A DNA stretch of 61,393 nucleotides, counting the filler, from Candidatus Woesearchaeota archaeon (lineage in GTDB: Archaea; Nanobdellota; Nanobdellia; Woesearchaeales; GCA-2687795): assembly GCA_030753365.1 (NCBI GenBank). It is 6 parts of 6 records of this genome, joined end to end, with 100 filler letters (N's around TTAATTAATTAA, not from the genome) between each part and the next. Parts side by side here need not be neighbours in the genome. Positions count along the whole stretch, not along the records: positions 27,403 to 40,769 come from JASMCJ010000071.1; 5 more parts are not named here. One strand, written 5' to 3'. Shown piece by piece: positions 1,211 through 45,238 of the stretch (positions are counted from its first letter, which is position 1; the number at the start of each line of letters is the position of its first letter). The translations under genes were made by a program, and so were the position numbers. The notes beneath the pieces were generated by a model, which saw only the letters and a program-made list of their open reading frames with translations, made no database searches and was not told the origin of the DNA.

Positions 1211-1231
1211 ATAACTAATGGAGTTCATACT

Positions 1232-2001: not shown

Positions 2002-2002
2002 A

Positions 2003-2380: not shown

Positions 2381-2626
2381 CAAATATATACTCTATAACA
2401 GCAAAATATAAATAGTAGTTAATCTAAGATAGGCTTTGATATGTTAAACTCCACTCAAAATTGGAATGTGTACGCATTATATTCTTGTCACATGAGAGTG
2501 GACTTCACTATCAAACCACTATATTGCTGAGAGCCTAAAAAAAGTCGGGTTCCTGCAATATCGTCTTCTGTTATCTAACTTTATTGCAAGAACCCAGTAG
2601 TCTTATCGTTAAAAAGAAAAGAGCTG

Positions 2627-2905: not shown

Positions 2906-2933
2906 CACAAAACAACATGAGGTGGGAACACAA

Positions 2934-3407
2934 ATGAAAACAATAACATCTATAGTATTAGCATTTGCGTTAGTGGTTACTGCAAATGCTGCTGAGCCTG
3001 GAAACCCTTTAGGAATACCGCAAGCCAGCCTTGATGATTTAGTGGGAGTAGAAGGAGGAATAAACCCCCCAGGCATATATTTAGAATATGATAGAAACAA
3101 AGAAGATAATATTCCATATGATTTGATAAACTATTATTCACCTAGGCAAGGTATATTTGGCTATGGAATGTTACCAACTGACAAACCCCTTAGATATGTG
3201 TGGTATGATGGAGAAAGATGGAGAAGAGTAGAAGACCCTAGAAGAGACGGCATAAATGGCAATGAAATAGAATTAAGCGCATCATACAATCCAGGAATTG
3301 AAAAGAAAGAAGAACAAAAAAGACTACCACTGCCAGAACTACAAAAAGAAGAAAACAGACGATTTGAACTAGATAATGAATTACCTTCAGGTTTTGCAAT
3401 GGGGTAA
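2934..3407 (+). CDS. Hypothetical secreted protein
   Basis: GAGGTG RBS; signal peptide MKTITSIVLAFALVVTANA. Confidence 0.65.
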   Translation: MKTITSIVLAFALVVTANAAEPGNPLGIPQASLDDLVGVEGGINPPGIYLEYDRNKEDNIPYDLINYYSPRQGIFGYGMLPTDKPLRYVWYDGERWRRVEDPRRDGINGNEIELSASYNPGIEKKEEQKRLPLPELQKEENRRFELDNELPSGFAMG

Positions 3408-3408
3408 A

Positions 3409-3801
3409 TCAAACCTTTTTTTTCTTCTTATAGTTCTCAACAGCCCTCTTAAGTGCATCAACTGCCAAAAGCGAGCAATGAATTTTGTTAGGTGGCAATT
3501 TCCCTAACTCCTTTACAACATCATCTTTAGTAATCTCAGATACTTCTTCAATTGTTTTGCCTTTTACCATATCGCATAAAATATCTGATGAGGAGATTGC
3601 TGCAACACAGCCGAAGGTTTTTACTTTAATATCCTCAACAATCTCTTTGCCAGCTTTGTTCTTTACTTTGATAGAGATCTCCATGACATCCCCGCATGTA
3701 GGATTACCCACCTTTCCAATGCCATCTGCATTCTTGAGTTCTCCTATATGTTTAGGATTCTTGAATATTTTCATAACTTTTTTTGAGTACATTTTTAACA
3801 C
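3409..3801 (-). CDS. iscU: Fe-S cluster scaffold IscU/NifU
   Basis: GNPTCGD, TFGC, KIHCS motifs. Confidence 0.95.
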   Translation of the reverse strand: MLKMYSKKVMKIFKNPKHIGELKNADGIGKVGNPTCGDVMEISIKVKNKAGKEIVEDIKVKTFGCVAAISSSDILCDMVKGKTIEEVSEITKDDVVKELGKLPPNKIHCSLLAVDALKRAVENYKKKKKV

Positions 3802-24693: not shown

Positions 24694-27302
24694 GAAAGTA
24701 TTAGTTTTAGGTTCTGGTGGATTGACTATAGGTCAAGCTGGCGAGAGCTTATTGTAAAGACAATAAGCCGCAAATTTGACTATAGTGGATCACAGGCCCT
24801 TAAGTGCCTTAAAGAACATGGCATTATAACGGTACTTATAAATCCAAACATAGCAACGGTGCAAACGTCCAAAGGTATGGCAGACAAAATATACTTTTAT
24901 CCTGTAACCCTTTTTTTTGTAGAAAAAATCATAAAAAAAGAAAGGCCAGATGGAATTCTTCTGGCATTTGGTGGCCAGACTGCTCTTAACTGTGGCGTTA
25001 AGCTTGAAGAAAAAGGAATTCTTAAGAAATACAATATTAAAGTTTTAGGCACCCAGGTAAAAGCAATAAAAGATACAGAAGACAGGGCTCTCTTTGTCAA
25101 AACGCTGTCTGAAATAAACTTAAAGACACCCAAAGGTTTTGCAGTAACATCTTTTGAAGAAGCAATGACTGCAGCAGACAAGATAGGCTATCCTATAATG
25201 GTAAGGATAGCATATGCATTAGGCGGCTTAGGCTCAGGAGTCTGCTACACAGAAGAAGAGCTTTTAGACAGATCAAAAAAAGCATTCTCATTCACAAATC
25301 AAATACTAATTGAAGAATACTTAGAAGGTTGGAAAGAAGTAGAATATGAAGTAGTACGGGACATATATGATAATTGCATTACAGTATGCAACATGGAAAA
25401 CTTTGATCCTATGGGAATCCACACAGGAGAAAGTATAGTAATTGCTCCTTCTCAAACATTGACAAACTCTGAATACCATAAGCTAAGAGCCATCTCAATT
25501 AGATTAATAAGGCACTTAGGCATTGTAGGAGAGTGCAATGTCCAGTTTGCACTAGACTCAAAATCAGAGGATTATAGGATAATAGAAGTAAATGCACGCT
25601 TGTCTAGGTCATCTGCATTAGCTTCAAAAGCAACTGGCTATCCTCTTGCATTCATTGCAACTAAACTAGCATTAGGCTATTCGTTAACAGAACTTCAAAA
25701 TCAAATAACAAAGAAAACAATGTCCTGCTTTGAGCCAGCTCTTGATTATGTAGTTGTCAAAATACCAAGATGGGACCTCCAGAAATTTAAAAGTGTTAAA
25801 AAAGAAATCGGTACAGAAATGAAAAGTGTGGGAGAGATAATGGCTATTGGCAGAAAATTTGAAGAGACTCTCCAGAAAGCAATAAGGATGCTCAATATAG
25901 GAATGGATGGCCTTGTTGCAAACGATGCTAAACTGAACAATATTGAAAAAGAGCTTAAAAATCCAACAGACCAAAGAGTGTTTGTTGTTGCAGAAGCAAT
26001 AAAACAGAGATATCCTATAGACAAGATATATGAACTCTCAAAAATAGACAAATGGTTCTTATATAAAATAAAAAATATAGTTGAAACTGAAGAAAAAATA
26101 AAACAGCATAACATAGAAACAATTTCTAAAGAATTAGTTTATGAGGCAAAGATTAATGGTTTTTCTGATGTTCAAATTTCAAAACTGCTCAATACAGATG
26201 AACTATCATTTAGAAAAATAAGAAAAGAGATGAATATTGTTCCCTGTGTAAAACAAATAGATACGTTAGCAGGCGAATTCCCTGCTAAAACTAACTATTT
26301 GTATCTTACTTATAATGGAACTACTGATGATATATCTTTTGAAGACAAAAATCAGGTTATAGTCTTAGGTGGAGGCGCTTACAGGATAGGCTCTTCCGTT
26401 GAATTTGATTGGTGTTGCGTTAATACAGTATTAACATTAAGAGACCTTAAGTATCCTACAATTATGATCAATTATAACCCTGAAACGGTTAGCACAGACT
26501 ATGACATCTGTGACAAACTTTACTTTGACGAATTGACATTTGAAAGGGTTATAGATATTTATGAAAAAGAAAATCCTTTAGGGGTTATTGTCTCAATGGG
26601 AGGCCAGATTCCAAACAATTTGGCAATGAAGTTCCATAATAATAATATAAGAGTATTAGGAACTGATCCCCAATCGATTGACAATGCAGAGAACAGACAC
26701 AAATTTTCAAAACTACTTGATAAACATAGCATAAAACAGCCAGCTTGGAAAGAATTAACAAATATAGAAGAAGCAAAAAAGTTTGCAGAGAAAGTAGATT
26801 TTCCAGTTCTGATAAGACCAAGTTATGTGTTAAGCGGCGCAGCTATGAGTGTTGTATTCAATGAGCATGACCTTGAAGAGTTCATATCTAAAGCATCAGA
26901 AGTTAATAGGGAACATCCTGTTGTGATTAGCAAGTTCGTGATGGGGGCTAAAGAGATAGAGATTGACGCAGTGTCAAACAAAGGCAATATACTTGCTTAT
27001 GCAATCTCAGAACATGTAGAAAATGCAGGAGTCCACAGCGGTGATGCTACTATGGCGCTTCCGCCTCAAAAAACATATCATGAAACAATAAGAAAAATAA
27101 AAAGAATTGCCAAAGAAGTTGCAGAACATCTCAAAATAACAGGGCCTTTTAACATCCAATTCCTAGCAAAGGATAATAAAGTCAGTGTAATTGAGTGCAA
27201 TCTAAGAGCATCAAGATCATTTCCTTTTGTATCAAAGGTGTTCAAAGTAAATTTCATAGAGCTTGCAACCAAGGCCATCATGAACGAGCAAGTAGCCAAG
27301 AT
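24674..27302 (+). CDS. carB: Carbamoyl-phosphate synthase large subunit, N-terminal part, interrupted by a 29-nt insert (24746-24774); truncated by gap
   Basis: Removing the insert gives [36 protein letters not shown]..., in frame with ORF 24859. Confidence 0.95.
24746..24774 (+). other. Putative BHB-type intron in carB mRNA
   Basis: Perfect 9-bp hairpin GCTTATTGT-AAAG-ACAATAAGC; removal restores the conserved motif and frame. Confidence 0.75.
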
Positions 27303-27402: not shown

Positions 27403-28367
27403 TAGATGGCGATTCTGATAAGAACCTTAACGATGGCGATTCAATTGACGAAAAAGCAAGACCTTCATCAACTGTTAAGTTTGATATAAGGCTTGATAAC
27501 AGGTTTAGTGATGATGACGATATAGAAATAGAAGATATTGAAGTTACAATAATCATTGAAGAGATTGATGAAGGCGATGACCTTGAAGAGGTTTTAGACG
27601 AGTTCGACTTAAAACCTGATAAATGGAAAAGAGTACAGCATGAATTCAAGCTTCCTTTAAATATTGGTGAAAGCACTTATAATGTTGTCATAACTGTTGA
27701 AGGCGAAGATGAGAATGGAGTTACACATATTAGCGAAGCAAAGCTTTATCTTGAACTAGATAAAGAAAGCCATGAGATTGTAATCAGCAAGTCTAGCTCA
27801 TCTCCTAAAGAAGTAAGCTGTGGAAACAGTTTTGTGCTTGATGTTACTGCAACTAATATAGGCTCTCATAGCGAAGACGAGGTTATCATAAGCATAATCA
27901 GTACTGAACTAGGGGTTAATATCAACGAAGAGACACCAGAACTTGACAAAGATTATGATGATAATGAGAACAAGTTCAACAAGGATTATACAATTGAAGT
28001 GCCAGAGAACAAAGCTGCAGGCAGATATCCTATTGATATAAGAGTATATTATGATACAGATGAGATAAGCGATCATGTTAGAGAATTTATCACAATAAAA
28101 GCATGCAGTGATAGTGACGATGACGATTCAACCACTGACACATCAGATGATTCAGTTACTCTTATAACTGGTAATGATGGAGATGACACTATGCCTCCAA
28201 CTATACAGCCTGATGTTCAGCCTTGGACTCAAGACGCTGTTGACAGCACAACCAAAATAACCTTTACTAAATCAAACGCTTATGTGGCACTGCTTGTATT
28301 AGCTAATATAGCTTTAGTAGGAGTAGTTGGTATTATGGTTGCTAAGTTCCTGTTCTTAAGACCATAA
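27403..28367 (+). CDS. S-layer-like surface protein, C-terminal part with membrane anchor (partial)
   Basis: Frame open from the gap; acidic beta-rich domains, D/T/S linker, C-terminal TM helix. Confidence 0.75.
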
Positions 28368-28384
28368 TTAATATTTCTTTTTAA

Positions 28385-28702
28385 TTAATATTCTTCTACT
28401 TCAGGAATATCTATTTTAATTTCTTCTTCATCAGGTTCTTTATTCTCTTCAGAACTTTCTTCCTTTTCTACATCATTATTAGTCTCAGGGTCATTGAATA
28501 TGCTTCCAAAGGCTGTCTCAACCTTTTCTATCTCTTCCTTGTCTGCAACACTGCTTTCAGCAGCAGCATTATCATCAGAGAATATGTTGCTCTTATTCAC
28601 ATAAACATCCTTATTTTCTACTTCAAGAAGGTTGGAAAGCATTTGTATTATCTTCTTTATTTCATCTTTACTGTCTTCTTTTGTGTCTATTGTGATTTTC
28701 AT
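28385..28702 (-). CDS. Hypothetical acidic protein
   Basis: MKITIDTKEDSKDEIKKII N-terminus, acidic tail. Confidence 0.7.
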   Translation of the reverse strand: MKITIDTKEDSKDEIKKIIQMLSNLLEVENKDVYVNKSNIFSDDNAAAESSVADKEEIEKVETAFGSIFNDPETNNDVEKEESSEENKEPDEEEIKIDIPEVEEY

Positions 28703-28808
28703 AAGGATTTTATTGAAAGCGGAAGTTAAAAAAGGTTTCTATTTAATTTTGTTTTAGAAGTTATAACCATTGAGTAATAGTAAAATATATAAATGAAGAG
28801 TTATTTCT

Positions 28809-28910
28809 AATAAAAAATCCCAATCGCAGCAAGCTGCGGGGTATTTTTAGTATTTAGTTTGCGTATTAAGCCGATGCAAGCATCGGGGTATAAAACCCAA
28901 ACTAAATAAT
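28809..28910 (+). mobile_element. 102-bp twin-hairpin element, copy 2 (between TATA box and start of ORF 28926)
   Basis: Identical to other copies. Confidence 0.85.
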
Positions 28911-28925
28911 TAAATAAGTGATAAA

Positions 28926-29720
28926 ATGTCTAACAAAGAATTAAGACAAGACCTAAGGATAAGAGGAGACAACTTAGCAGAGCTTGCTAGAAAGCTTCAT
29001 AGCATAATCTCAAGTGACAACCCAGACGCAAGTTCAGTTGGTTTTGAATATCAAACATATTCTTATCCAAGATATCATGAAAAGAAAGATGATGATGAAG
29101 GAACAATTGAACACTTCTTTGAAAATTTAGCTGCTTTAAGTCCAGAGAATGTCGTACATGAAGATGAAAAAGGAAACGTACTATTAGATGAAGAAAGTAT
29201 TGTTAGCCTAGTTTCTCAGTATGACAAAAAAGGTAAGATGATATTTATTCTTACACAATCTTCTAATTTTGATGATGCCCCTAAGATAAATAATATGCAA
29301 TCACATATTGAAAACTCTGATTTAAACCTTACTTTAAAAGATAAAAACTTGGAAGAAGGATTAACATACAGGGTTAAATGCGGCAAAAAAGAAGGTAAGG
29401 GAGCTGCATATGTTGGATTACAAATAAAAAGGGTTGCCTATACGAGAATTGAAAAAAGATTAATGAAAGCAAAACAAAGATTGATGAAAGGTTATTCAGG
29501 GAAAGTTATAAGACATTTCTCAAAACCTGAACAAAGAGAAAAAGTGAAAGATGGCTTAAGAGAAGTTAGAGGAAAATTAAAGACCCTAGCAGATTACATA
29601 AGTCTTTGTTCAAAGCCATTATATATGGATATAGAAATATATGGAAAAGAGAACATGTCACCAAGAGAAGATACAGAAGCGCTTACCATAGGAAAACTTT
29701 TCCCAAAACAAGTATTATAG
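28926..29720 (+). CDS. Hypothetical protein
   Basis: 264-aa ORF with GTGAT RBS-like site. Confidence 0.7.
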   Translation: MSNKELRQDLRIRGDNLAELARKLHSIISSDNPDASSVGFEYQTYSYPRYHEKKDDDEGTIEHFFENLAALSPENVVHEDEKGNVLLDEESIVSLVSQYDKKGKMIFILTQSSNFDDAPKINNMQSHIENSDLNLTLKDKNLEEGLTYRVKCGKKEGKGAAYVGLQIKRVAYTRIEKRLMKAKQRLMKGYSGKVIRHFSKPEQREKVKDGLREVRGKLKTLADYISLCSKPLYMDIEIYGKENMSPREDTEALTIGKLFPKQVL

Positions 29721-29743
29721 AACTAAAGAAATTTCTATCCCTG

Positions 29744-30310
29744 CTAAACAGAGCCTTCAAGAACAGGCAAATCTAACTTACTTACATCTTTTCTAAACTC
29801 TTCTATTGTTTTTATATCATCTCTGTTCACATAAAAGTATTCAATTTCCCGGGATTTAATTTCCTTTGGCATTCTACAATGATATATTTTACATTGCATT
29901 GGTTTTATTTCCTGTATACCACATTCCATCCTTCCTTCTTTTAAGAAGTATCCTAGAATATGAAACATTCTTATTGCTTTCTCTTTAACAGTTTCAATAG
30001 GTCTCTCTATTTTAGATTCAATTTCCTCTAATTGAACCTGTTTTTCTCCTTTTCTAACAGCAAAGATACAAAGAGACTTATACTCTTTTGGCATATATCC
30101 TTCCTTAAAAGAAACAATTTTTTTATTAAAGAACTTATCAAAATCTTCTGCTCCTAAATAATCAAGCACTTGTTGCGCTTCTCCTTCAAACAAAAAAGGA
30201 GGATTATAACAACAATATGTGCTTCTACAATTACAACTATATTCACTTGTTATCTTCAGTATTTCATCCAATGGTGTGGTTGCTTTGATTTTTGGATTAG
30301 ACATATTCAT
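29744..30310 (-). CDS. YkgJ-like cysteine-cluster protein
   Basis: CNCRSTYCC...LCIF...CGIQEIKPMQCKIYHC. Confidence 0.7.
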   Translation of the reverse strand: MNMSNPKIKATTPLDEILKITSEYSCNCRSTYCCYNPPFLFEGEAQQVLDYLGAEDFDKFFNKKIVSFKEGYMPKEYKSLCIFAVRKGEKQVQLEEIESKIERPIETVKEKAIRMFHILGYFLKEGRMECGIQEIKPMQCKIYHCRMPKEIKSREIEYFYVNRDDIKTIEEFRKDVSKLDLPVLEGSV

Positions 30311-30366
30311 TAAAGAATTTAAATTTATTTTTAAAGATTAGGTATTTATTACTTGTCAAGAATGAA

Positions 30367-31140
30367 TTAGAAAACCCTTCCAAAATTCATATAAATATTA
30401 TTCACAACTTCCTGTTCATCCATTCTCTTAATCTCTGCTATTTTCTTTATTGTTTCTGTTATAAAAGCAGGCTCATTCCTTTTATCTTTGTAAGGAGAAA
30501 GGTATGGCGCATCTGATTCTGTAAACAACTGTGACAAAGGAACTTCTTTCACAAGCTCCTGGAACTGCTGCGTTCTCACAACAATAGCAGGTATGGAAAA
30601 ATACCATCCATTCTCTTGTATTCTTTTAACTAATTTCTTCTTGCCGCAGAAACAATGCATTATCACTTTCTTTAGCTTAAAACTCTCAAGTATTTCTATG
30701 CATTCTTCTTCAGCTTTCCTTGAATGCACTATCACAGGCTTCTTTAATTCTTCAGCTAATTTAAGCATCTCCTTGAAATCTTCTATCTGCCCTTCGTCTC
30801 TGCCATTCACAAAGTCTAAGCCAATTTCTCCTATTGCAACAATATTATCTTTATTAGCTTTAATAAAGTCAATCTCTTTAAGAACATCAAACTCTTCTAA
30901 TTTAAGAGGAAACTCACCATCCTTAGTTTCTCTTTTTAAAGCTGACCTTGGATAAACTCCCAGAGAACATTGTATAATATCATATTTCTTAGCAAGCTTT
31001 AATGCCTTCCTATTAGTCTCAGGGTTAATGCCAGCAGTAATCACTGCTTTAAACCCAGCTTTCTTTGCATTTTCTAGTACTTCATCTAAGTCATCCTTAA
31101 AGAGTTCAAGATGTGAATGAGTGTCTGTTAGTAATTTCAT
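30367..31140 (-). CDS. tatD: TatD-family deoxyribonuclease
   Basis: DTHSH, GEIGLD, HSR, HCF, ESDAPY. Confidence 0.93.
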   Translation of the reverse strand: MKLLTDTHSHLELFKDDLDEVLENAKKAGFKAVITAGINPETNRKALKLAKKYDIIQCSLGVYPRSALKRETKDGEFPLKLEEFDVLKEIDFIKANKDNIVAIGEIGLDFVNGRDEGQIEDFKEMLKLAEELKKPVIVHSRKAEEECIEILESFKLKKVIMHCFCGKKKLVKRIQENGWYFSIPAIVVRTQQFQELVKEVPLSQLFTESDAPYLSPYKDKRNEPAFITETIKKIAEIKRMDEQEVVNNIYMNFGRVF

Positions 31141-31141
31141 T

Positions 31142-32038
31142 TTAATTAACATAAGCACCTAGTATCCAGGCTTCTATATTATCAAAGTCTCCTAATTTCT
31201 TTAAAGCTTTGTCTTGTATTTGCCTTATTCTTTCTCTGCTTAAATGGTATTTATCACCAGCCTCTTTTAATGTTAATGGAGTTCTTCCATTCAGTGCAAA
31301 TCTATCTCTTAAGACATCTGCTTCTCTTTCAGTTAAAGTTTCCAAGACCGAGTCAATTGTTTCAATCAAAGCGTCATTTAAAGCATCTTCTTCCATATCA
31401 TAACTTAAATCCTCCATGAAATCTACTAGACTTGAAAAAGCCCCATCGTCTCCTGTAGGAACATCAAGAGAAACAGGTTGCATATTATCAGCATCTAATG
31501 TTCTTTCTACTCTCTCAACCGCCATATTCAAGTTTTCTGCAACTAATTGTAAATTTGCTTCATATCCTATTTTTTCAAGTCTTTTTTGTTCTTTTCTTAT
31601 TCGATTCAATTCAGAAACTCTATTTATTGGCATTCTAATCGTCCTGGCCTGATCAGCCAATGCCCTGAAAATATTCTGCCTTACCCACCAATAAGCATAA
31701 GAGATTAAATGGTAACCTTTCTCAACGTCAAACCTATTTACTCCTTCAATTAATCCAATATTTCCCTCATTAATAACCTCTAAAAGAGTAAGACCAAAAT
31801 ATTGGTATTTTTTTGCAACATTAACAACAAACCTTAGATTCGCCTTAACAAGTTTATCTTTAGCATATTTATCTCCCTTATCAGCTCTTTTGGCATACAT
31901 AACTTCATCTTCTCTTGTGAGCATTGGTATTCTATTTATCTCTTTAAGATACATAGGCAAAATTTCCCTGTCTTCTCGAGAACCATTTCCTCCCACATAA
32001 TCTATTTTTTCCTTGACTCTTACAGTTGCATATGGCAT
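31142..32038 (-). CDS. Bacterial-type sigma-70 family factor (RpoD/RpoS-like, regions 1.2-4)
   Basis: YLKEINRIPML, ANLRFVVNVAKKY, EGNIGL, SYAYWWVRQ, SRERIRQIQDKALKKL. Confidence 0.92.
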   Translation of the reverse strand: MPYATVRVKEKIDYVGGNGSREDREILPMYLKEINRIPMLTREDEVMYAKRADKGDKYAKDKLVKANLRFVVNVAKKYQYFGLTLLEVINEGNIGLIEGVNRFDVEKGYHLISYAYWWVRQNIFRALADQARTIRMPINRVSELNRIRKEQKRLEKIGYEANLQLVAENLNMAVERVERTLDADNMQPVSLDVPTGDDGAFSSLVDFMEDLSYDMEEDALNDALIETIDSVLETLTEREADVLRDRFALNGRTPLTLKEAGDKYHLSRERIRQIQDKALKKLGDFDNIEAWILGAYVN

Positions 32039-32218
32039 TTTTAATTAGACTCCCGCCTTATATTTCAATTCCTTATAAGAAATTATATTATAGCTTATAA
32101 AATTATTGTAACGATGCAAGAAAATATTTCCATTTAAATTTTTGTCATTAATTTCCTCATTTCCTTTATACGCATTATAGGAGATTTATGATGTACTTTT
32201 CTTTAAATTTAAGTAAAA

Positions 32219-32311
32219 TGGGGCCGCGGAGACTTTCAAACCATTAATGGCTTTTGAACTCCGGTTACCAGACCCCCAGCCTGGTATCATTCCAAGCTAG
32301 ATCACAGCCCC
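32219..32311 (-). tRNA. tRNA-Pro(GGG) with 20-nt T-loop intron (32233-32252); first 10 nt overlap the LAGLIDADG ORF end
   Basis: GGGGCTG/CGGCCCC acceptor, CCAGG-CTGGGGG-TCTGG anticodon arm, spliced T-loop TTCAAAT. Confidence 0.88.
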
Positions 32312-33129
32312 AAATGATTTTTCACTCTAGATAAATGTTTTTTATTTGAAAATCCTATTTCCTTTATATATATTCTAACTTCATCTTTTTTATACAAAGT
32401 AACGGAATAAGGAGTGTTTTGGATAAATGTAAGATTAAAATAGTTTGCCATCTTTTGTAAATCAGTTAATAAGTTAGACGCCCTGTTGTGAAAAGAGATA
32501 TATAGTTGTTTATCACGTTTATGGTAGTGCGTACAACCATCTGTATCAATCATTCCTCTTATACAGTATCTTGAGAAAGTTTTGTTGGTTTTAATCCACT
32601 TGGGTACTTGAATATTTCTTTTTACTTTATTACCTTGACCCAAACCATATTTTTCAAGAAGTATCCTTAATTCTTTACTATATACATATATAGATACTGA
32701 TTTAGACCTTTTACTTTTATATACTTTTGGTCCTATTCCGAACAATTTCTTAAATAGTTTTTTTATATGTTCTTTAAATTCCTGTTCTTCACTACTTATA
32801 ATTATTCTTATGCTATCCCTATAAATATTTCCATCACCAAGCATTATACCAATAAATTCTGCAAAATCTTGGACCTTACCTTCAAATTGTATTTTAATGG
32901 GTTTAAGATACTTTCCAAAATTTCTTTCTGAATGGAATTTTGCTTCGATTAGCTTCAATGATTTTCTAGGAATCCTGCTTATTTTTACTATTACATCCAA
33001 TTGACTTTCAGAAATTGATTTGCTTTTATATATGAGATTCTTCAAATTAGTTCTTATTGATGTCTTTAATAGCTTTTTATAATACTGTCTTAGTAGTTGC
33101 CTTATTAGTAAATTAATTTTGTATCTCAT
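32302..33129 (-). CDS. Free-standing two-motif LAGLIDADG homing endonuclease
   Basis: FAEFIGIMLGDG and YCIRGMIDTDG; no intein splicing motifs. Confidence 0.88.
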   Translation of the reverse strand: MRYKINLLIRQLLRQYYKKLLKTSIRTNLKNLIYKSKSISESQLDVIVKISRIPRKSLKLIEAKFHSERNFGKYLKPIKIQFEGKVQDFAEFIGIMLGDGNIYRDSIRIIISSEEQEFKEHIKKLFKKLFGIGPKVYKSKRSKSVSIYVYSKELRILLEKYGLGQGNKVKRNIQVPKWIKTNKTFSRYCIRGMIDTDGCTHYHKRDKQLYISFHNRASNLLTDLQKMANYFNLTFIQNTPYSVTLYKKDEVRIYIKEIGFSNKKHLSRVKNHLGL

Positions 33130-33142
33130 GTAATTTCAGGTG

Positions 33143-33194
33143 CTGGAGATCAAATTTATAAATCTTTTGATAGACCAAGCTACACTACGGCCCC
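33143..33194 (-). pseudogene. Orphan 5' half of tRNA-Pro, probably with a 19-nt intron
   Basis: GGGGCCGTAGTGTAGCTTGGTCTATCA...CTCCAG; perfectly complementary to the 3' acceptor strand at 32220-32226; TATA box about 28 nt upstream. Confidence 0.75.
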
Positions 33195-33250
33195 TTTACA
33201 TAAGAAGAAAACCGCAACCAATATAAATAACTAATCAAAATAAAGATTAT

Positions 33251-33787
33251 ATGCTTACTTTAATCCTTAAATCATTATATCTTATGCTTCCTGCATATTT
33301 TGCTAATATGGCACCTATTATATGCAAGAAAATAAAGTTTCTCAATGTTCCTGTTGATTTTAATGAGAAACTTGAAGGCAAGCCAATATTTGGCAGAAAT
33401 AAAACCTACAGAGGCCTGCTTGCAGGCGTGATATTTGCAGTGATTATAGCATTCATTCAATTCCTTCTTTCAAGATTTAATTTTTTCAGTAGTATTAGTA
33501 TATTAGATTATTCAGAGTGGCATATTATAGGGTTCCTTTTAGGATTAGGCGCTTTAGTAGGCGATATGGCAGAATCATTCATCAAGAGAAGGCTGAACAT
33601 CAAACCAGGCAAGTCATTCATACCATTTGACCAGACTGACTATGCTATAGGCGCATTAATTTTCATTTCAATACTTAACAGATTAGAACTGAATTTTATA
33701 TTCATAACTATAGCATTAAGCTTTATGCTGCACATTATTGTTAATCATCTTAGTTTCTTGTTCAAGATAAGAAAAAGTAGGTGGTAA
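33251..33787 (+). CDS. carS: CDP-archaeol synthase
   Basis: PAYFANMAP, GRNKTYRG, GDMAESFIKRR, DQTD. Confidence 0.92.
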   Translation: MLTLILKSLYLMLPAYFANMAPIICKKIKFLNVPVDFNEKLEGKPIFGRNKTYRGLLAGVIFAVIIAFIQFLLSRFNFFSSISILDYSEWHIIGFLLGLGALVGDMAESFIKRRLNIKPGKSFIPFDQTDYAIGALIFISILNRLELNFIFITIALSFMLHIIVNHLSFLFKIRKSRW

Positions 33788-33798
33788 AGTTTAGCTTG

Positions 33799-34731
33799 TT
33801 AAAATAAATTTATGCCAAGAATAATTAAATATCCAACAACACATCCCATGCTAAGGAAAGGCATTGCAGGATAAAACTTATCTTTCTGCCCTTTGATGAA
33901 TAAAAACATTAAGGCAATTGTTACACAGACTGGTATTATTAAAGTCTTCAAAAATCCAACTAACAATGTATTCTGCAGCATAAGGCCTTTCATCACAACA
34001 CCCGCAAATAATAAAGGAAATCCTATATCTCCTCCCCCAAGTATTGCATGCCTTGTCTTAACTTTCACAAGCTTCTCTGTTTTTGTCATCTTTTTAGCTT
34101 TCTTAGTCCCCATAGTAGCTTTCCCACCATAAGGTATAAGCATACCTGCAAAGATGTTTGACTTGGTTTGGAATTTTGCCAACTTTACCATATGCTTGCT
34201 TTGCCATACAGCGAACATATCATATATTGATATAAACAGAAGCAGCATGAAGGCTGCAAAGAGGTTTATCATTGGCACAAATATTGCAGCCAATCCTCCA
34301 TAGATAAACAATTCAGCAACATTATGTATTATAACATTAGGCCTGTATGTTCTCCAGGCTGCAACAATAAAAGCAAGTATAGAAGCAACAAAGCTTGATA
34401 TAAAAGCTGAGAACGCAAAAGCAAGGCAAAGCCAGGCAACAACAAAGAACCATGCCTTTATTATCATAACCTTCTTGAATCTTATAAGGAGCAATAGAAT
34501 AACAGTACCCATTAATATTGCAAAGAATATGTAACCAAAAGAAGCTCCTCCTTCTACCTCAGGCCTTTGAAAAGATACACCTAAAATACTTGGAAGTTCT
34601 TTATATTCAGTAATCCCGCTTACAGCTGTTGCAGCATGGTCTATATATCTATCTATAATAGTCAAACCAACCACTTGAGACACAAAGAACAGAATTAATA
34701 ACAGAATTGTTACTTTAAGCTCATGTTTCAT
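33799..34731 (-). CDS. Presenilin-family intramembrane aspartyl protease
   Basis: YD, LGGGD and PAMP motifs, multi-TM. Confidence 0.9.
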   Translation of the reverse strand: MKHELKVTILLLILFFVSQVVGLTIIDRYIDHAATAVSGITEYKELPSILGVSFQRPEVEGGASFGYIFFAILMGTVILLLLIRFKKVMIIKAWFFVVAWLCLAFAFSAFISSFVASILAFIVAAWRTYRPNVIIHNVAELFIYGGLAAIFVPMINLFAAFMLLLFISIYDMFAVWQSKHMVKLAKFQTKSNIFAGMLIPYGGKATMGTKKAKKMTKTEKLVKVKTRHAILGGGDIGFPLLFAGVVMKGLMLQNTLLVGFLKTLIIPVCVTIALMFLFIKGQKDKFYPAMPFLSMGCVVGYLIILGINLF

Positions 34732-34762
34732 CAGAAAATTAGACCAGAGAAAGTATATAAAA

Positions 34763-36061
34763 CTATTGTATGGCCTCGCCTATAAGATAATGCACAGTTA
34801 TTTTATTGATCTTAACCTTTATCCAGTCTCCCACTTCAAACTCTCCTATAACAACCACTGGCTTATACGAAGGGTTTCTTCCAACAAAACTGCCTTCTTT
34901 TCCTTTTTCTTCTATAAGGATATAACCTTCCCAGTTTTTCCATTTCTTGTTACTTTCAAAGGAAACATAATCAAACACTGAAGTGATATGAGTTGACCTC
35001 TTTTTTGTTTCATTGCCATGGACCTGCTTAAGCTTTGCAGCTTCAGTTCCCTTATGCGGCCAGAACCTTGACCTGTTAAGCACATCCGGCTTTATCTCAT
35101 TTATTAGGTTAATCGTCTGCTTGAACTCTTCTTCAGTTTCTGTGGGAAAGCCTGCTATCACATCTGTTGAGATTGTAATATTTGGTATTGCCTCCCTGAA
35201 TTTATTTATGATTTTTTTAAAATCTTCCACTGTATGTCCTCTTTTCATCAATTTCAAAACTCTGTCAGAGCCTGACTGCACTGGCAGATGAATAAATTTG
35301 AACATCTTTTCATGCTTAAACGCTTCTATAAGCTCATCAAGTATTGGCAGCACATTCTTAGGGTTCATCATTCCAACTCTCACTCTAAAATCTCCTATCT
35401 GCCTGCAGATTTTGTTTAGAAGTTGTGGAAGCAATACTTTTTCTTCAGCTTTAACAGGAGTTTTATCTAAATTATAGCACGCATTATCTTGTGAGGTTAT
35501 CCAGACTTCTCTGCAATCTTGCTCAACCGATTCTTTTACCTCTCTTATTATTTCTTCAACAGGAAACGAATAGAATTTGCCCTTTATTAACCTTGTATTG
35601 CAGAACGAACAATTATTAGTGCATGAGTTAGAGATGGGAATTATGCTTATTGCCTTATTCTTCCTTAGCCTTGGCAGTGCAATCTTAGGCTCTTCCTCAT
35701 ATGCCATTACTTCCACAAGATTGTCATTAATGGTTTCCTCAACAACTTCAACAATTTTTGCTATATTATGAGTATTGATTAAAGAAACGTCTGCAATCTT
35801 TCTTATATCACCTATGATTTGTTTCGGTATGCAACCTGCTATTATCAGCTTACTATGAGGATATTCCTTGCTGAAATATTCTATTTCCTTTAATGCAGTG
35901 CTTATTGAAGGCCGTTTAACTGCGCAGATTGATAGTATTATCACAAACGCATCTGCAGGAGTGTTTACTAAGTTAAAATCTGCCTCCTTTAATAGGCCAA
36001 GCATCATTTCAGCTTCTGCTACATTGTTAGAGCAGCCATGCACTTTTAGATAGATGTTCAT
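34763..36061 (-). CDS. tRNA methylthiotransferase (MiaB-like, archaeal MtaB type), radical SAM
   Basis: UPF0004 N-terminal domain, CTNNCSFC, TRAM domain. Confidence 0.92.
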   Translation of the reverse strand: MNIYLKVHGCSNNVAEAEMMLGLLKEADFNLVNTPADAFVIILSICAVKRPSISTALKEIEYFSKEYPHSKLIIAGCIPKQIIGDIRKIADVSLINTHNIAKIVEVVEETINDNLVEVMAYEEEPKIALPRLRKNKAISIIPISNSCTNNCSFCNTRLIKGKFYSFPVEEIIREVKESVEQDCREVWITSQDNACYNLDKTPVKAEEKVLLPQLLNKICRQIGDFRVRVGMMNPKNVLPILDELIEAFKHEKMFKFIHLPVQSGSDRVLKLMKRGHTVEDFKKIINKFREAIPNITISTDVIAGFPTETEEEFKQTINLINEIKPDVLNRSRFWPHKGTEAAKLKQVHGNETKKRSTHITSVFDYVSFESNKKWKNWEGYILIEEKGKEGSFVGRNPSYKPVVVIGEFEVGDWIKVKINKITVHYLIGEAIQ

Positions 36062-36146
36062 ATTAATGAGAAATCGTTGGTATTATTTAAATATAGCTTC
36101 TAAAATGTTCGTTCTTCTATTAAAACCAACAACTTTAAATACAAGC

Positions 36147-36212
36147 AATACTACAACAATCTTATAAAGATACTAATACAATATTAAAGTAGTATTACAA
36201 CAATACTGCAAT
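36147..36212. promoter_or_regulatory. Possible operator: repeated AATAC/GTATT and ACAACAAT units upstream of an RHH gene
   Basis: CAATACTACAACAAT ... GTATTACAACAATACTGCAAT. Confidence 0.4.
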
Positions 36213-36221
36213 AAATCAAAA

Positions 36222-36359
36222 ATGCCAAAAAGCGACAAAAGATTGATGGTGCACGTGTACCTGACAAAGAAAGAAAAGAAGAGGATAGAAGAAGAGGCAG
36301 AGGAATTAGGTATATCTCTTTCTGCTTATATCAAGGTAAGGTTATTCAGCAACAAATGA
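36222..36359 (+). CDS. Small ribbon-helix-helix (CopG-like) protein
   Basis: Manual translation MPKSDKRLMVHVYLTKKEKKRIEEEAEELGISLSAYIKVRLFSNK; ATGA overlap with next gene. Confidence 0.75.
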   Translation: MPKSDKRLMVHVYLTKKEKKRIEEEAEELGISLSAYIKVRLFSNK

Positions 36360-38788
36360 AAAAGAAAAGCAGGCATATCAGCAAAAAGAGCATTATTGTC
36401 CTTATCACAATAGTAATAGTTATCAGCTTTTTCTTAGTCAGGCCAAGATTAACAGGCTTCGTCAGTATAAAGAAGGAATATGCCCTCATCGACAAAGTAA
36501 GCATCACAGCAAACGAAAGCAGCGAATATACATGGATACCTAAAGAACAAGGCACTCTAAAAAGCTTTAAGCTGAGCGGAACTGTTCTAAGGCAGGGAGC
36601 TGCAAAGGTTTATCTAAACTATAGCAATAAATTATACTTGGTATTTGACAGCGAACAGCTCGAGAAGAGTCTGAGTGCTGTAACAGGCATGGTTATAACA
36701 AACATTAGCATAGCTAACCAAACAATAGAAGAAATAGTAATTAACCAGTCTAATAATGAAACACAGGTTCTTAATGAAACCATAGAAGACCAAATCAATG
36801 AGTCAACAGAAGAGCTAGTAAATGAAACCATTGAAGAGCCAACAACTAATGAACCAGAACTAACTAAAACCATTCAACTAGCTCTCACTTACTACACGGA
36901 AAGCAGTTATGACACTGATAATAATGGCTTTGAAGAGCTTGATGGTGTAATAGACTTAACTGTAAAAGATACAGATTTCAATTTCAACGCTTCTCCTGAC
37001 AACCTATGCACAAAGTGGACTATTAATTCCATTGACAAAAACACCATTAGTAATGTCTGCCATGGAAGCAGCAGTTGCTGTAACTTCTTAGATATGGATC
37101 CATCATCAACAAATTGGAACGATCCTTACTACAGCTATTTTGAAAAAGATAACGCTGGCTATAACAATTTAGTATCCGCTCAAATAATTCATGCTTATTA
37201 CGATTTCACAACTTTAGAGGCAGATATTATCTACAGCAGCAGCTCAAGCCTAAGCGCTAAGTTTAAGGCACCTTATATTGAATTTGAGGATGTTTGCTTA
37301 GAAACCTGCCTTCTGCCAGGGATTAATGAAACTAATTATAACCTAATCTTCGAAATCAATAATACTCAACTTGACATTGACAGTATATCCTATACTATTG
37401 AAAAAATAATCATAAGCGACCATCCGCCTAAACTTATTAAAAACATTTCTGATATTACTATTGCAAAAGATAATAATTACATCATCAATCTAAGTGAGTA
37501 TTTCTTTGATGAAGACGGCGATATCCTTAGCTATTCCTTTTACAAGACAGATAATGTTTCAACCATAATCAACGAAAACATTGCAGTTATCTCTCCTGAT
37601 AAGGGTTTCACAGGATTAAAGAGTTCTTTCTTTATCGCAAACGACACCAATTCAGTGGCAGTGAGCAATGTGTTCAGGATTAATGTGAGCGAGTTTGGCC
37701 AGGAAAATGTGAGCGAAGGCCTTGTACAGGGCCAGGCAGTCATAGGAAAGCCTGTTAAATGGATTAGGAAAATCAAGCTGAAAGAATCATCTAAAAACAT
37801 TTCAATAAATATAACAAAGCATGCACATAATATCACTATTAAAAAAATAGTTAACGGCACAAAGCTTAAGCTCAAGAAGGAGAAGATAAAGGTCAACAAT
37901 CTTGATTTTAAGGATTATGAAAAGCTTATTGATGGCAAGGTTAAGGGAATATCAATAATAGAAGAATTGAACGCAACAACTATAGATATATTGGATAACA
38001 GCACAGAGTATGAGATTGAGTATGAAACTGAAGGCCCTTCTCTCACAGAAGAAGAGCTTAGTTTTTATAAGAAGACAATAACTATCAGCTCTGATATACA
38101 TTACACTAACATCCTAAGCTATACCTCCCTGCCCATTGAAGTGCCTGTTAATAGTATAAAGCTTTACTGGATAAACAACGGCACAAGGGAAAGGGTAAGC
38201 ACTAACAAATTTGATAAGAACAATAACAGCCTTATAGATTATATTGAATGGATTGTTCCTCACCTGAGCAACCAAACTTATGAATTAGAGTTAGTTATAC
38301 TTAATACCCAAAGCTATCCAACAAGGGGAGGCAACTGGACTGTTATGTTTAATGCTAACGGTATAGGCAACCTAACAATAAGCTCAAGCAATAGCACATC
38401 TTATTCCGAGATGTTCAATGATAACAGCTCAACAATCAATGATTTAGATTTATTAGATTTAAGATGCGGAGATAACCTTTTCTTCAACAAAGAGAGCCTG
38501 TTTATGCAGAATAACACATACCTTATCTTATCCAACAGCACAAAAGTCAAAATAACTGAACTAGCAAACAGTTCACTGGAAGTATCTTCTTTATTCATAG
38601 AAGATTATTCTTGCAATAAAACCGGTTACCATACTGTGAGAGTTTTGACAGATGGAAAGCATCACCAGCTGTTTGATTTTAATGGCTTTCAGGCTTATGC
38701 CCATAACCTTGTAAATAATATCCCAATCACTAGCATTACTGTATTTAGTGATATGAACTCAACCAGGACAAAAGTTTTCTTATCTTGA
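36356..38788 (+). CDS. Large N-anchored surface glycoprotein, possibly C-terminally truncated
   Basis: TM helix plus LTGFV, many NxS/T sequons, cadherin-like DEDGD.LSY; ends abruptly in the convergent gene. Confidence 0.75.
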   Translation: MKKKSRHISKKSIIVLITIVIVISFFLVRPRLTGFVSIKKEYALIDKVSITANESSEYTWIPKEQGTLKSFKLSGTVLRQGAAKVYLNYSNKLYLVFDSEQLEKSLSAVTGMVITNISIANQTIEEIVINQSNNETQVLNETIEDQINESTEELVNETIEEPTTNEPELTKTIQLALTYYTESSYDTDNNGFEELDGVIDLTVKDTDFNFNASPDNLCTKWTINSIDKNTISNVCHGSSSCCNFLDMDPSSTNWNDPYYSYFEKDNAGYNNLVSAQIIHAYYDFTTLEADIIYSSSSSLSAKFKAPYIEFEDVCLETCLLPGINETNYNLIFEINNTQLDIDSISYTIEKIIISDHPPKLIKNISDITIAKDNNYIINLSEYFFDEDGDILSYSFYKTDNVSTIINENIAVISPDKGFTGLKSSFFIANDTNSVAVSNVFRINVSEFGQENVSEGLVQGQAVIGKPVKWIRKIKLKESSKNISINITKHAHNITIKKIVNGTKLKLKKEKIKVNNLDFKDYEKLIDGKVKGISIIEELNATTIDILDNSTEYEIEYETEGPSLTEEELSFYKKTITISSDIHYTNILSYTSLPIEVPVNSIKLYWINNGTRERVSTNKFDKNNNSLIDYIEWIVPHLSNQTYELELVILNTQSYPTRGGNWTVMFNANGIGNLTISSSNSTSYSEMFNDNSSTINDLDLLDLRCGDNLFFNKESLFMQNNTYLILSNSTKVKITELANSSLEVSSLFIEDYSCNKTGYHTVRVLTDGKHHQLFDFNGFQAYAHNLVNNIPITSITVFSDMNSTRTKVFLS

Positions 38789-39998
38789 TTTCTTAATCCT
38801 TGTAAACACAAAGAATATCAGAATCACAAGGAAAATGTCCACAAGAATGAACGCAACTTTGTTATAGGTTAACACTGCTTTAATCTTAGGTAAAGGAGAC
38901 AGTTTAACTGTCTCTTCTTCTACTTGTTTAACTTCTTCTGCAGGCTCTTCCGAATCACCTGCAAGAGACTCAACTTTTTCTATTGTACTGCTTGTGTTAA
39001 GGCTTTCATTAAGTGTTTGATTCGTGCCAGGCAGAACAACATTAATCTCTCCAGTAGCCTGAGAATAAAGCTTCTGTTCAAATAGGGTTTCATAGGTAGC
39101 ATTAGCAAATATAAAATATTTAGCGGGCATACCTAGCGCCACAAAATAAAAAATCCCAATCGCAGCAAGCTGCGGGGTATTTTTAGTATTTAGTTTGCGT
39201 ATTAAGCCGATGCAAGCATCGGGGTATAAAACCCAAACTAAATAATTAACTATTTCTCCTACTTCAAGCTTGTCCTTGCTTGAATTGAACAATATTGAGA
39301 GAATAATCTTTTACTCTAATGTTAGTTGTAGTTGGGCTTATTGTCTTGGTGCTGTTTCCATTGAAATAGCTTATTGAATTGTTTGAGTTGAATGTTGTTT
39401 TATTGATGGCTTCAATTGTCCATGAACATTCTTTTTTTCTGTTAACAGCAAGATCCCCAGTCCATATAACCTCCTTATTTCTTACCATGCAACCTTCCAT
39501 ATTCAATATATTAAATCCATCAAACACATCCAAATACTTAATACTATTAGCTGTCAGGCTGCCTGTGTTCTCCATTGTAATATCAACATCTGTCCTTTCT
39601 CCTATAAGCAGTTCGCCATCTTCTATGGTCATTGTCGCTTCAATGTTAGCAAGAAGTGAGTAAACAGCCACGCCCGCCTGATACACATCCTGATGCAGCG
39701 TGTAATTCCTGTAACTTACATTCATTCCATTAAAGCATATACTTAAGTTGGCTATTTCCTCGCAATATCCTCTATCTATGAAAAGATTATAGCCATTAAG
39801 TTTTACAGATACTTTCTCACTAAATTCATCAAGTTCAACAATGAAACTTTTACTATTAACTGTGAAACCTTCTCCAGAATGCAACCAGCTATTGTAAACT
39901 TCCTCCTGATATCCTGCCTTAGCAAAGCCAGCTAAAAGTATTAAAAGAAATATTGTAGGAATATATTTTGCTTGCATACTATTAATTATATAATCCAA
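38780..39998 (-). pseudogene. Secreted/S-layer-like protein broken by a frameshift (~39290) and element copy 3
   Basis: Signal peptide ORF 39264-39998 continues in another frame (FNSSKDKLEVGEIVN), through the element, to a C-terminal TM helix. Confidence 0.7.
39145..39246 (+). mobile_element. 102-bp twin-hairpin element, copy 3
   Basis: Identical to other copies. Confidence 0.85.
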
Positions 39999-40095
39999 AG
40001 TTTTAATACTTATCGATTACTTAGAAAGTTTTTAGTTTTGAGTATATCAAAGTTTATACAAAGCTTTATATAAAATCTACTTCTTAAAATTATTT

Positions 40096-40263
40096 ATGAA
40101 ACCGGTCAAATATTCTGAGATGCTTAAGAACAATAAGCTCACAAAGTTTAGGCCGGTTAAGGACATTGTAGTCGATAACACTACTTCTGGCGGATATAAA
40201 GAAGAGCAAGAATTAAAGAACAAGGACGAGAAGTCAAGGCAGATACTTCTGGATAAGTTTTAA
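40096..40263 (+). CDS. Small hypothetical protein (55 aa)
   Basis: MKPVKYSEMLKNNKL...QILLDKF; TTTATATA box about 25 nt upstream. Confidence 0.5.
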   Translation: MKPVKYSEMLKNNKLTKFRPVKDIVVDNTTSGGYKEEQELKNKDEKSRQILLDKF

Positions 40264-40269
40264 CAGAAT

Positions 40270-40614
40270 CTATTTTTTTTCACAATCTTTAACATCCTCT
40301 TCTCCCTTAATCCTCGAGAAGAATAGTATGCCAATAACACATATTATTGTTACAATGACTGCAGATACTATTTGATAAATATAACCGGTTCCTTCCATTC
40401 CAGACCTTTGAATTATTTCATCAACGCCAGCTCTTATTGCATCTCTCCAGACAAGAGCTATAACAAATCCGAAAGCAGCAAGCACTGCTGTTAAGACATT
40501 CTTTTTTATCTCGCTTTTCAGATTAACTGCGCTGGATCTAACAGTATGAAAGGACCTATGCGCTATTCCTTTTATTCTGGAATGAATACCTTTTCTTTCT
40601 TCTTCAGATGCCAT
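40270..40614 (-). CDS. Small two-TM membrane protein (DUF5654-like)
   Basis: TAVLAAFGFVIALVWRDAI pattern. Confidence 0.75.
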   Translation of the reverse strand: MASEEERKGIHSRIKGIAHRSFHTVRSSAVNLKSEIKKNVLTAVLAAFGFVIALVWRDAIRAGVDEIIQRSGMEGTGYIYQIVSAVIVTIICVIGILFFSRIKGEEDVKDCEKK

Positions 40615-40869
40615 TTTATAATCTAGGGCACAATAGTAATTATAGAGCCTATTGCTGTCTTGTTAAAACCATCATCTCCTTTGCTGAACATGATTGAAAT
40701 ATCTTCTTTGAATTTGCTACTTGATGCCAATACGCAGCTAACCTCCATATTTTCACTGCTATCAGACGCNNNNNNNNNNNNNNNNNNNNNNNNNNNNNNN
40801 NNNNNNNNNNNNNTTAATTAATTAANNNNNNNNNNNNNNNNNNNNNNNNNNNNNNNNNNNNNNNNNNNN

Positions 40870-41779
40870 CAATATACTTGCTTATGCAATCTCAGAACAT
40901 GTAGAAAATGCAGGAGTCCACAGCGGTGATGCTACTATGGCGCTTCCGCCTCAAAAAACATATCATGAAACAATAAGAAAAATAAAAAGAATTGCTAAAG
41001 AAGTTGCTAAGCATCTTAATATAACAGGTCCATTCAACATCCAATTCCTAGCAAAAGACAATAAAGTAAGCGTCATTGAATGCAATCTAAGAGCATCAAG
41101 ATCATTTCCTTTTGTATCAAAGGTGTTCAAAGTAAATTTCATAGAGCTTGCAACCAAGGCCATCATGAACGAGCAAGTAGCCAAGATTGACAAATCACAC
41201 TTTGAGCTTGACTATGTTGGTGTTAAGGCCCCTCAATTTTCTTTTTCAAGGCTTAAAGGCGCAGATCCTACATTATCAGTTGAGATGGCTTCTACTGGCG
41301 AAGTTGCGTGTATAGGCAATGATATAAGAGAAGCTTTCCTGCTCTCAATGCTCTCAGTAGGTTTTAAGATACCTCAAAAGAACATCCTTCTTTCCACAGG
41401 GCCAGTTGAAAGCAAAGCCTTACTGCTCAAAGAAATAAAAAAACTTCAGGAAATGGACTACAAGCTCTATGCAACCAAAGGAACTGCCAACTTTCTAAAG
41501 GAAAATAACATTAAAACTGAAACCTTGCACTGGCCACTTGAAGAAGAGAAACCTAACATTGTTGATTTCATAAAAGAAGGTAATATAGACCTGGTGATTA
41601 ACATCCCAAAGAACTTTGAACGGGAAGAACTAACCAATGGCCAGATTATAAGAAGGACAGCAATTGATTTTGGTATTCCTCTTGTTACAAATCCTCAGAA
41701 TGCAAAGCTTTTAATCGATGCGTTGCATGAAAAGAAGTTAGAAGATATTGAAGTTAAAAGCTGGGATGAGTTTAAATAA
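40870..41779 (+). CDS. carB: Carbamoyl-phosphate synthase large subunit, C-terminal part (overlaps contig-1 copy)
   Basis: First 318 nt correspond to 26985-27302; EMASTGEV, MGS domain. Confidence 0.95.
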
Positions 41780-44930: not shown

Positions 44931-44988
44931 TAATTTATCAATCCTCTGTCATTATATAAACACTTCTCCAATGCAATATATATTTTTG

Positions 44989-45090
44989 ATTATTTAGTTT
45001 GGGTTTTATACCCCGATGCTTGCATCGGCTTAATACGCAAACTAAATACTAAAAATACCCCGCAGCTTGCTGCGATTGGGATTTTTTATT
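44989..45090 (-). mobile_element. 102-bp twin-hairpin element, copy 4 (inverted), abutting tnpA
   Basis: Exact reverse complement of other copies. Confidence 0.85.
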
Positions 45091-45092
45091 TT

Positions 45093-45238
45093 ATGAAGCA
45101 TATTTGTAAGGGGATTGAAAAAAGATACTTTCTTCGTTTTGATGCTTTAGGTTACGAAAATGATCATATTCACTTAGTGGTTGAGGGTGCTCCTCGTTAT
45201 TCTCCTTCAAGAATCATGCAAATCTGTAAAAGTGTTTT
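45093..45238 (+). mobile_element. tnpA: IS200/IS605-family Y1 transposase fragment (N-terminus missing, cut by gap)
   Basis: ICKGIEKRY...ENDHIHLVV...PRYSPSRIMQICKS with HUH motif. Confidence 0.85.

Follow-up and report, generated by a model that had tools for sequence, protein, structure and literature searches.

What kind of element can place an endonuclease gene between an orphan tRNA 5' half and a complete copy of the same tRNA gene? The question is raised by a locus of Candidatus Woesearchaeota archaeon (assembly GCA_030753365.1), contained in a stretch of 61,393 nucleotides, filler included, which is called the window here. A first description, made from the DNA alone (the sequence-only reading), held that a LAGLIDADG gene splits a tRNA-Pro gene by intron-less homing and repairs its target with a recoded half-tRNA.

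Results

Organization of the tRNA-Pro Locus

The locus is situated in the middle of contig G000:C71 (window 27403-40769). The genome, 0.9 Mb in size and 94.5% complete, is affiliated by homologue records with Woesearchaeota/Nanobdellota, and the sequencing runs containing it are marine for the most part. On the minus strand, a tRNA-Pro 5' stub is followed by a two-motif LAGLIDADG ORF and then by a complete tRNA-Pro(GGG) gene; the layout given by the sequence-only reading was recovered in all its parts. The stub (33168..33194, minus strand) comprises 27 nt, corresponds to tRNA positions 1-24 and has a GTG-type D-stem, as judged by comparison with element-free alleles. Next comes a 19-nt element-specific insert (33149..33167, minus strand), recognized from homologues and from the score of its palindromic TATA box (33162-33155), and then a short stretch (33142..33148, minus strand) that may be a relic of tRNA positions 25-31; it matches the natural allele L209 at 7/7 positions, with only 3-4 nt conserved among homologues. 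The stand-alone endonuclease of 275 aa (32302..33129, minus strand; identified by Pfam, fold and alignment) ends inside the complete hybrid tRNA gene (32219..32311, minus strand). This gene opens with the replacement 5' half, tRNA positions 1-26 (32285..32311, minus strand), assigned from its sequence and from homologue L025. Nucleotides 1-10 of this half overlap the last two sense codons of the ORF, part of a third and the TGA, and the stop codon is tRNA nucleotides 8-10. The tRNA does, as had been claimed, start within the last codons of the endonuclease.

A promoter had also been placed 5' of the original half. We found a weak TATA-like box (33220..33227, minus strand) 33 nt 5' of the stub, a distance that agrees with the 33-38 nt at which TATA boxes precede element-free tRNA-Pro genes. 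By its position this box is probably the original tRNA promoter, but its matrix score is just 1.0, so that the claim holds for distance and not for strength.

The flanking genes are a divergent host gene for CDP-archaeol synthase (33251..33787, plus strand; Pfam CarS-like, E 1.9e-37) and a sigma-70-like gene (31142..32038, minus strand; Pfam Sigma70 regions 1.2, 2, 3 and 4). The latter represents a bacterial-type sigma-70 factor with regions 1.2-4 encoded by an archaeal genome, immediately 3' of the tRNA. A sigma-70 promoter scan returned 9 sites versus 8.0 expected and was uninformative, the host being an archaeon.

Identical copies of the locus are present in two other public assemblies (L021 and L022), a 97% copy is present in L023, and error-free contigs cover parts of the locus in two sequencing runs that were not flagged as its possible source. 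Together, these copies and the contigs from independent runs rule against an assembly artefact.

Two further repeats were seen in the window. A palindromic dispersed repeat of ~110 bp, which looks like a MITE or a transposon end, occurs at 28808-28922, ~1898-2008, 39139-39256 and 44979-45094, with 21 copies on 18 contigs. Contigs C69 and C72, two of the six that N spacers join in the window, share a 318-bp repeat at their ends (95%; 26985-27302 and 40870-41187).

The Rebuilt tRNA-Pro(GGG) Carries a T-loop Intron

Neither ARAGORN nor Rfam detected a tRNA in the raw sequence at 32311-32219. The miss is due to a 20-nt intron in the T-loop (32233..32252, minus strand), which was absent from the sequence-only reading; once 32252-32233 was deleted in silico, ARAGORN called tRNA-Pro(GGG), and the gene has a fold z of -4.4. 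The intron is of the hBH type, lies at 59/60, forms a 4-bp central helix (4/4 pairs) and a 5-bp outer helix, and is a host feature of the 3' half. Comparable T-loop introns occur in the element-free alleles L177 and L203, and the host genome encodes a splicing endonuclease.

The rebuilt gene is the sole tRNA-Pro recovered in our screens of the assembly. A "Pro(CGG)" called by ARAGORN on contig C34 looks by eye like a mis-called intron-bearing tRNA-Arg, and relaxed ARAGORN searches (-ps85) gave noise only. Across the genome (G000), ARAGORN finds just 8 tRNAs without introns, and many tRNA genes appear to carry at least one non-canonical intron.

The Upstream Stub Is a tRNA-Pro 5' Half

Scored with a matrix derived from 21 tRNA-Pro alleles that lack the element and were gathered with custom patterns, the stub stood out against 300 shuffles (p=0.003). 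It is identical at 26/27 nt to the start of the intact element-free tRNA-Pro L193 and forms 7/7 pairs with the downstream acceptor, all Watson-Crick. The native stub fits empty alleles better than the replacement half does, these alleles all coming from other species.

The 19-nt Insert Is Probably a Promoter

The 19 nt between stub and ORF had been read as a probable intron. Relative to the natural allele L209, they are inserted between stub positions 24 and 25, and at this junction we found 2/4 central pairs and no BHB. Shifting the junction to 26/27 gives BHB-like geometry in 3/5 homologues but yields a G10-A25 mismatch in the D-stem; at none of these junctions does a BHB restore the natural tRNA. 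A D-loop intron at 19/20 or 20/21 was also considered and rejected, no full central helix being visible by eye. When 401 genomes were searched for the hairpin pattern, the 12 matches comprised the two element-bearing genomes and 10 others, and these 10, one of them from the unpublished genome G205, are by eye tRNA genes without the insert.

In 5/5 close homologues, a TATA box scoring 7.7-8.1 lies within the insert, 30-33 nt ahead of the ATG (genome 99th percentile 7.1, measured on a slightly narrower window). The lack of a BHB at 24/25, the conserved TATA box and the confinement of the insert to element-bearing genomes speak against an intron; from its sequence, the insert is probably the promoter from which both endonuclease and rebuilt tRNA are expressed.

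At 28-40 nt, the usual distance, the rebuilt tRNA lacks a strong TATA box of its own (3.2, as against a background 90th percentile of 4.0), and an internal tRNA promoter within the ORF tail is unsupported in the subclade of this locus at that score. For this reason, the ORF and the rebuilt tRNA are likely co-transcribed. A first regex test for promoters in ORF tails gave 1/22 observed versus 6.5 expected from synonymous recoding, and it missed a TTTATTAA motif. This motif, made of Phe-Ile-Lys/Asn codons, is found in the ORF tails of the sister subclade L034-L052, ~32-36 nt before the tRNA, which is promoter distance; it is possible that there it acts as a tRNA promoter embedded in coding sequence.

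The Endonuclease Is Intact

Pfam LAGLIDADG_3 matched two stretches of the 275-aa ORF (E 1.6e-10) and all 28 aligned homologues, and the acidic motif residues Asp-99 and Asp-197 are invariant in 28/28 aligned proteins. An AlphaFold model (pLDDT 92.4) had the TliVMA intein endonuclease, I-Tsp061I and I-DmoI as its best Foldseek matches, with WhiA also among the fold matches. Two motifs, both acidic residues and a pseudo-dimeric fold are those of a two-motif LAGLIDADG homing endonuclease. No intein domain was found in the protein, and its N-terminal domain of ~70 aa (residues 1-70) received no family assignment from Pfam, with Atlas matches <0.9. Among five close homologues (10 pairs), dN/dS was 0.08-0.19, with dS saturated for the pairs with L026. 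The enzyme is intact and under purifying selection.

Homologue Clades Follow One tRNA Isotype Each

We surveyed the 115 stand-alone homologue loci that remained once 8 duplicates, 26 viral loci, ORFs longer than 480 aa and loci with profile scores below 90 had been removed; one of the 115 (L127) comes from the unpublished genome G121. An intact T-arm lies within -60/+200 nt of the stop at 96/115 loci versus 4/541 control ORFs. The T-arm is truncated in 7 of the remaining loci and missing in 12, the window's own locus being counted among these 12 owing to its intron. Throughout, the loci are related by descent, and the counts overstate their independence.

In a quick tree rooted at the midpoint, the 28 loci with the highest scores cluster as a single clade (SH-aLRT 96), a grouping that was not blind, as the adjacency to tRNA-Pro had been noticed by eye beforehand. 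Three of the 28 are cut off before the stop. A tRNA-Pro-type gene overlaps the ORF in 24 of the 25 with downstream sequence, L035 being the single one without a tRNA; in 21 the ORF stops 10-35 nt into the tRNA, and in 3 it reads through. Automatic calling ranked Pro first in 19 of the 24; in 4 more, Pro was the second call or was read by eye, and L033 is ambiguous. In 16/28 members, which are not independent, a D-arm stub precedes the ATG with p<=0.05; it is full-length in 6, and the other 12 have no detectable stub. The sequence-only reading had called for a survey of tRNA-overlapping stops and upstream orphan halves, and both features recur in the clade. Where stubs persist they decay: L025 retains 5/7 acceptor pairs, L026 has lost the D-loop GG, and L024 has two G-to-A changes within its first three bases.

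Other clades follow other isotypes. The Ser clade has a tRNA-Ser at 38/40 loci, mostly in Patescibacteria/Omnitrophota, and Gln and Gly were found at 14/25 and 5/9 loci of their clades, calls on intron-rich genes being noisy. Several of the tRNA-Ser loci L053-L102 (Patescibacteria, Omnitrophota) have an opposite-strand tRNA-Ser-like sequence upstream. Clear 5' stubs are present in the Gln/Gly-associated relatives L112, L113, L105, L070 and L005, and in L112 an exact ~20-nt duplicate of the tRNA 5' end stands immediately before the ATG. The ORFs of L004, L018, L019, L119, L123 and L134 run antisense into a tRNA 3' end, some with a duplicated 3' fragment upstream, which is a mirror-image cassette.

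The host genome also contains a second stand-alone LAGLIDADG-like ORF (G000:C47, ~1300-2430, minus strand; E 1.6e-7 to the query), with an intron-rich tRNA ~55 nt downstream and, upstream, a sequence that we take to resemble an IS200/IS605-type end. On G000:C7 (~1030-3655, plus strand), an ORF that is eRF1-like by eye is split by what is probably an intein, part of which is LAGLIDADG-like.

The Cassette Has Moved between Host Families and the tRNA Gene Is a Hybrid

Locus L025 carries the same cassette as genome G010, which belongs to another family. DNA homology to L025 is limited to 33194-32271, from the first base of the stub to the anticodon stem (82.8%), and the flanks are unrelated. The enzymes are 78% identical, as compared with 37-65% for 8 host proteins. 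A match better than 1e-100 was found in 3/401 genomes. Patchy presence and this single host pair indicate, as far as sequence comparison goes, that the cassette has moved between host families.

The two 5' halves of the locus behave as expected if a donor 5' half had been placed on a recipient 3' half: the stub is all Watson-Crick with the local acceptor, whereas the replacement half forms a G-U pair with it and is all Watson-Crick with the acceptor of L025, whose anticodon is ambiguous (GGG or CGG). The first 20 nt of the replacement half are identical in L025.

The rebuilt tRNA had been said to contain a diverged and recoded 5' half. Divergence was confirmed, since the window's halves differ in the D-stem, by a D-loop that is 2 nt shorter in the replacement, and by changes at 20-26. 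Recoding was not: the ATC/GAT D-stem also occurs in the element-free allele L185, whose genome has no profile match at 1e-25, and the replacement half is more likely a donor's natural allele than a product of de novo recoding. Positions 10-13 of the D-stem differ between stub and rebuilt tRNA in 11/14 loci, against ~68% expected by chance among the 21 free alleles, so that this count does not by itself point to selection for resistance; 2 of the 3 loci with equal positions carry a D-loop intron (by eye). A LAGLIDADG site is roughly 20 bp and, around the junction, would cover positions 20-26. It is plausible that the rebuilt allele resists recutting.

An empty allele with the locus's own flanks was not found among sister strains, four sequencing runs and a congeneric genome. 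The sister strains L023 and L024 (93% and 84% DNA identity, same upstream flank) both carry the element. In the four runs, joints that skip the insert had only 21-26-nt sides and probably belong to tRNA-Pro genes of other organisms. The sole congeneric genome (75% complete) had no match to three flanking proteins, and an anticodon-arm pattern searched in 301 genomes recovered just the window's locus and one chance match.

Alternative Explanations

We consider it quite probable that the locus is an intron-free, stand-alone LAGLIDADG homing cassette with tRNA-Pro genes as its target. The claim of intron-less homing that restores the tRNA thus stands as far as a mobile, intron-free element with its own 5' half is concerned, on the strength of clade fidelity, transfer and decaying stubs; what is not supported is that the half was recoded.

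The element might once have been mobile and since have been domesticated, its protein kept as a DNA/RNA-binding regulator or as a WhiA-like maturase of its tRNA with homing lost. Such a history would fit the purifying selection across strains that all carry the protein, its long duration with no empty target visible, the extra N-terminal domain that lacks a family match, and the presence of WhiA among the fold matches. We nevertheless think it unlikely, because both aspartates at catalytic positions are invariant, the distribution is very patchy and transfer between families appears recent.

Less likely still is that site-specific integration of a pNOB8-like plasmid or virus into tRNA-Pro, or a tandem duplication, left the locus behind with the LAGLIDADG gene as a passenger. 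A tRNA fragment beside a restored tRNA is indeed the classic footprint of integration, and this origin was proposed for a similar tRNA-Thr locus of Caldiarchaeum (PMC3293823). Integration of the pNOB8/SSV type would entail an integrase and identical att repeats, but the insert has one ORF and no integrase, and its halves are diverged rather than identical att copies. Every enzyme clade follows one tRNA isotype, and the 26 matches on viral contigs are all distant (E 2e-8 or weaker).

A giant BHB-type intron of ~0.9 kb, with the mature tRNA using the upstream half, is very improbable. One hBH-shaped junction does exist, in which stub positions 21-24 pair 4/4 with downstream 22-25 beside an 8-bp outer helix (contrary to the claim that no BHB would excise the insert), the stub pairs perfectly with the local acceptor and the genome has a splicing endonuclease. 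But splicing there would yield an RNA that lacks one base, has G10-A25 and is mismatched atop the anticodon stem, and the junction is not conserved (L025 has 3/4 central pairs with 2 outer ones, and L026 lacks outer pairs altogether). The downstream copy is already a complete tRNA and, as the main evidence, the stubs decay in L025, L026 and L024. Neither the conserved BHB nor the correct RNA of an endonuclease-encoding BHB intron is found.

Discussion

Relation to Known Systems

The nearest functional parallel is with fungal mitochondrial mORFs, which form gene hybrids in atp6 of Allomyces macrogynus and in atp6, atp9, cox2 and nad3 of Glomus (PMC3630166). There too, an endonuclease ORF sits in an essential gene without an intron, a diverged foreign end restores the gene and the native end is left as a stub; in the window, the ORF likewise lies between a native end and a diverged restoring end. 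In contrast to mORFs, the target is a chromosomal tRNA gene of an archaeon, the 5' end rather than the C-terminus is replaced, and the replacement is written in the last codons of the endonuclease. By analogy, the locus would work like an mORF, but it is not a member of that group, whose targets are fungal mitochondrial protein-coding genes.

The tRNA-Thr(GGU) locus of Caldiarchaeum subterraneum has the same layout, with a 5' fragment (nt 1-27), an 813-bp ORF and a restored tRNA with a changed 5' part, and empty and filled alleles coexist within one population (PMC3293823). Its insert measures 1,868 bp with a repeated 545-bp region, and the ORF, named a putative recombinase, does not overlap the tRNA, unlike the ORF in the window, as far as the main text of that paper goes. 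The terms "LAGLIDADG" and "homing" are absent from this main text.

Among phage T4 enzymes, the GIY-YIG endonuclease SegB is intergenic and recognizes a tRNA motif (PMC2330249), and free-standing endonucleases cut hundreds to thousands of bp from their own genes (PMC2988022). What SegB and intronless homing have in common with the cassette is an endonuclease that lies outside any intron, next to tRNA genes, and spreads together with its tRNA neighbours. The cassette differs in that it appears to occupy its own target and to rebuild that gene, with an insertion point inside the tRNA gene and not between genes.

I-DmoI, I-Tsp061I and intein endonucleases have the same fold and the same acidic motif residues. 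By the titles of their PDB entries they lie in introns or inteins, whereas the window's protein has no intein domain, is probably unspliced and bears the extra ~70-aa N-terminal domain. The I-DmoI and I-Tsp061I genes are located in BHB introns of rRNA genes.

We found no description in the open-access literature of LAGLIDADG cassettes that rebuild tRNA genes in DPANN, and a term search of an Asgard tRNA-intron preprint (October 2026) found neither "homing" nor "LAGLIDADG". Apparently, the cassette family is broad and undescribed in DPANN; the gene-rebuilding trick itself has precedents.

Proposed Mechanism

On the homing reading, the enzyme would cut close to the D-arm of an empty tRNA-Pro allele, within positions ~13-35. 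Repair of the break would then copy the cassette through a short stretch of tRNA homology at either end: the stub at its left and the anticodon/T arms at its right. With homology arms that lie within the tRNA, the flanks need not be related. The first 24 positions of the recipient would stay behind as the stub, and the gene would be rebuilt from the 5' half carried in the ORF tail, which, as a donor-allele half, would probably escape recutting.

RNase P probably cuts the rebuilt tRNA from the 3' end of the endonuclease mRNA and removes the stop codon; if ORF and tRNA are co-transcribed, 5' processing of the tRNA would strip the stop from the message. The genome holds RNase P RNA, Pop5 and Rpp30, a search with PF01868 did not find Rpp29 in it, and these components together with the absence of a strong TATA box of the tRNA's own supply the prerequisites for such clipping. 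That clipping regulates the endonuclease is speculation. The overlap may also be a by-product, because tRNA positions 8-10 and 13-15 often spell stop codons.

A wider picture is offered more tentatively, as possible rather than probable. The locus may be one member of a large family, as yet undescribed, of intron-free homing cassettes that each keep to one tRNA isotype; in DPANN archaea and Patescibacteria they would carry tRNA 5' halves from species to species, and their hosts would come to depend on them. At this locus, transcription from the TATA box of the element would be the sole source of tRNA-Pro(GGG), which would arise as the tail of the endonuclease mRNA, and its maturation by RNase P would leave a non-stop message. 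The stub would have two roles, as the left arm of homology when the cassette homes across species and, in autorepression, as an operator that overlies the TATA box and cannot be cut. Autorepression has been shown for I-TevI (PMC2988022).

Annotation tools overlook both the stub and the rebuilt tRNA at this locus. Since each enzyme clade keeps to one tRNA type, targets would be predictable, and the family may provide a set of new LAGLIDADG specificities. The cassette offers a testable source of archaeal tRNA fragments, hybrid tRNA alleles and D-loop introns, and its spread implies that families of ultra-small archaea exchange DNA by means of as little as ~30-50 bp of homology. If the homing reading is true, neither an intron nor an intein is needed for a homing endonuclease to invade an RNA gene that is essential and single-copy.
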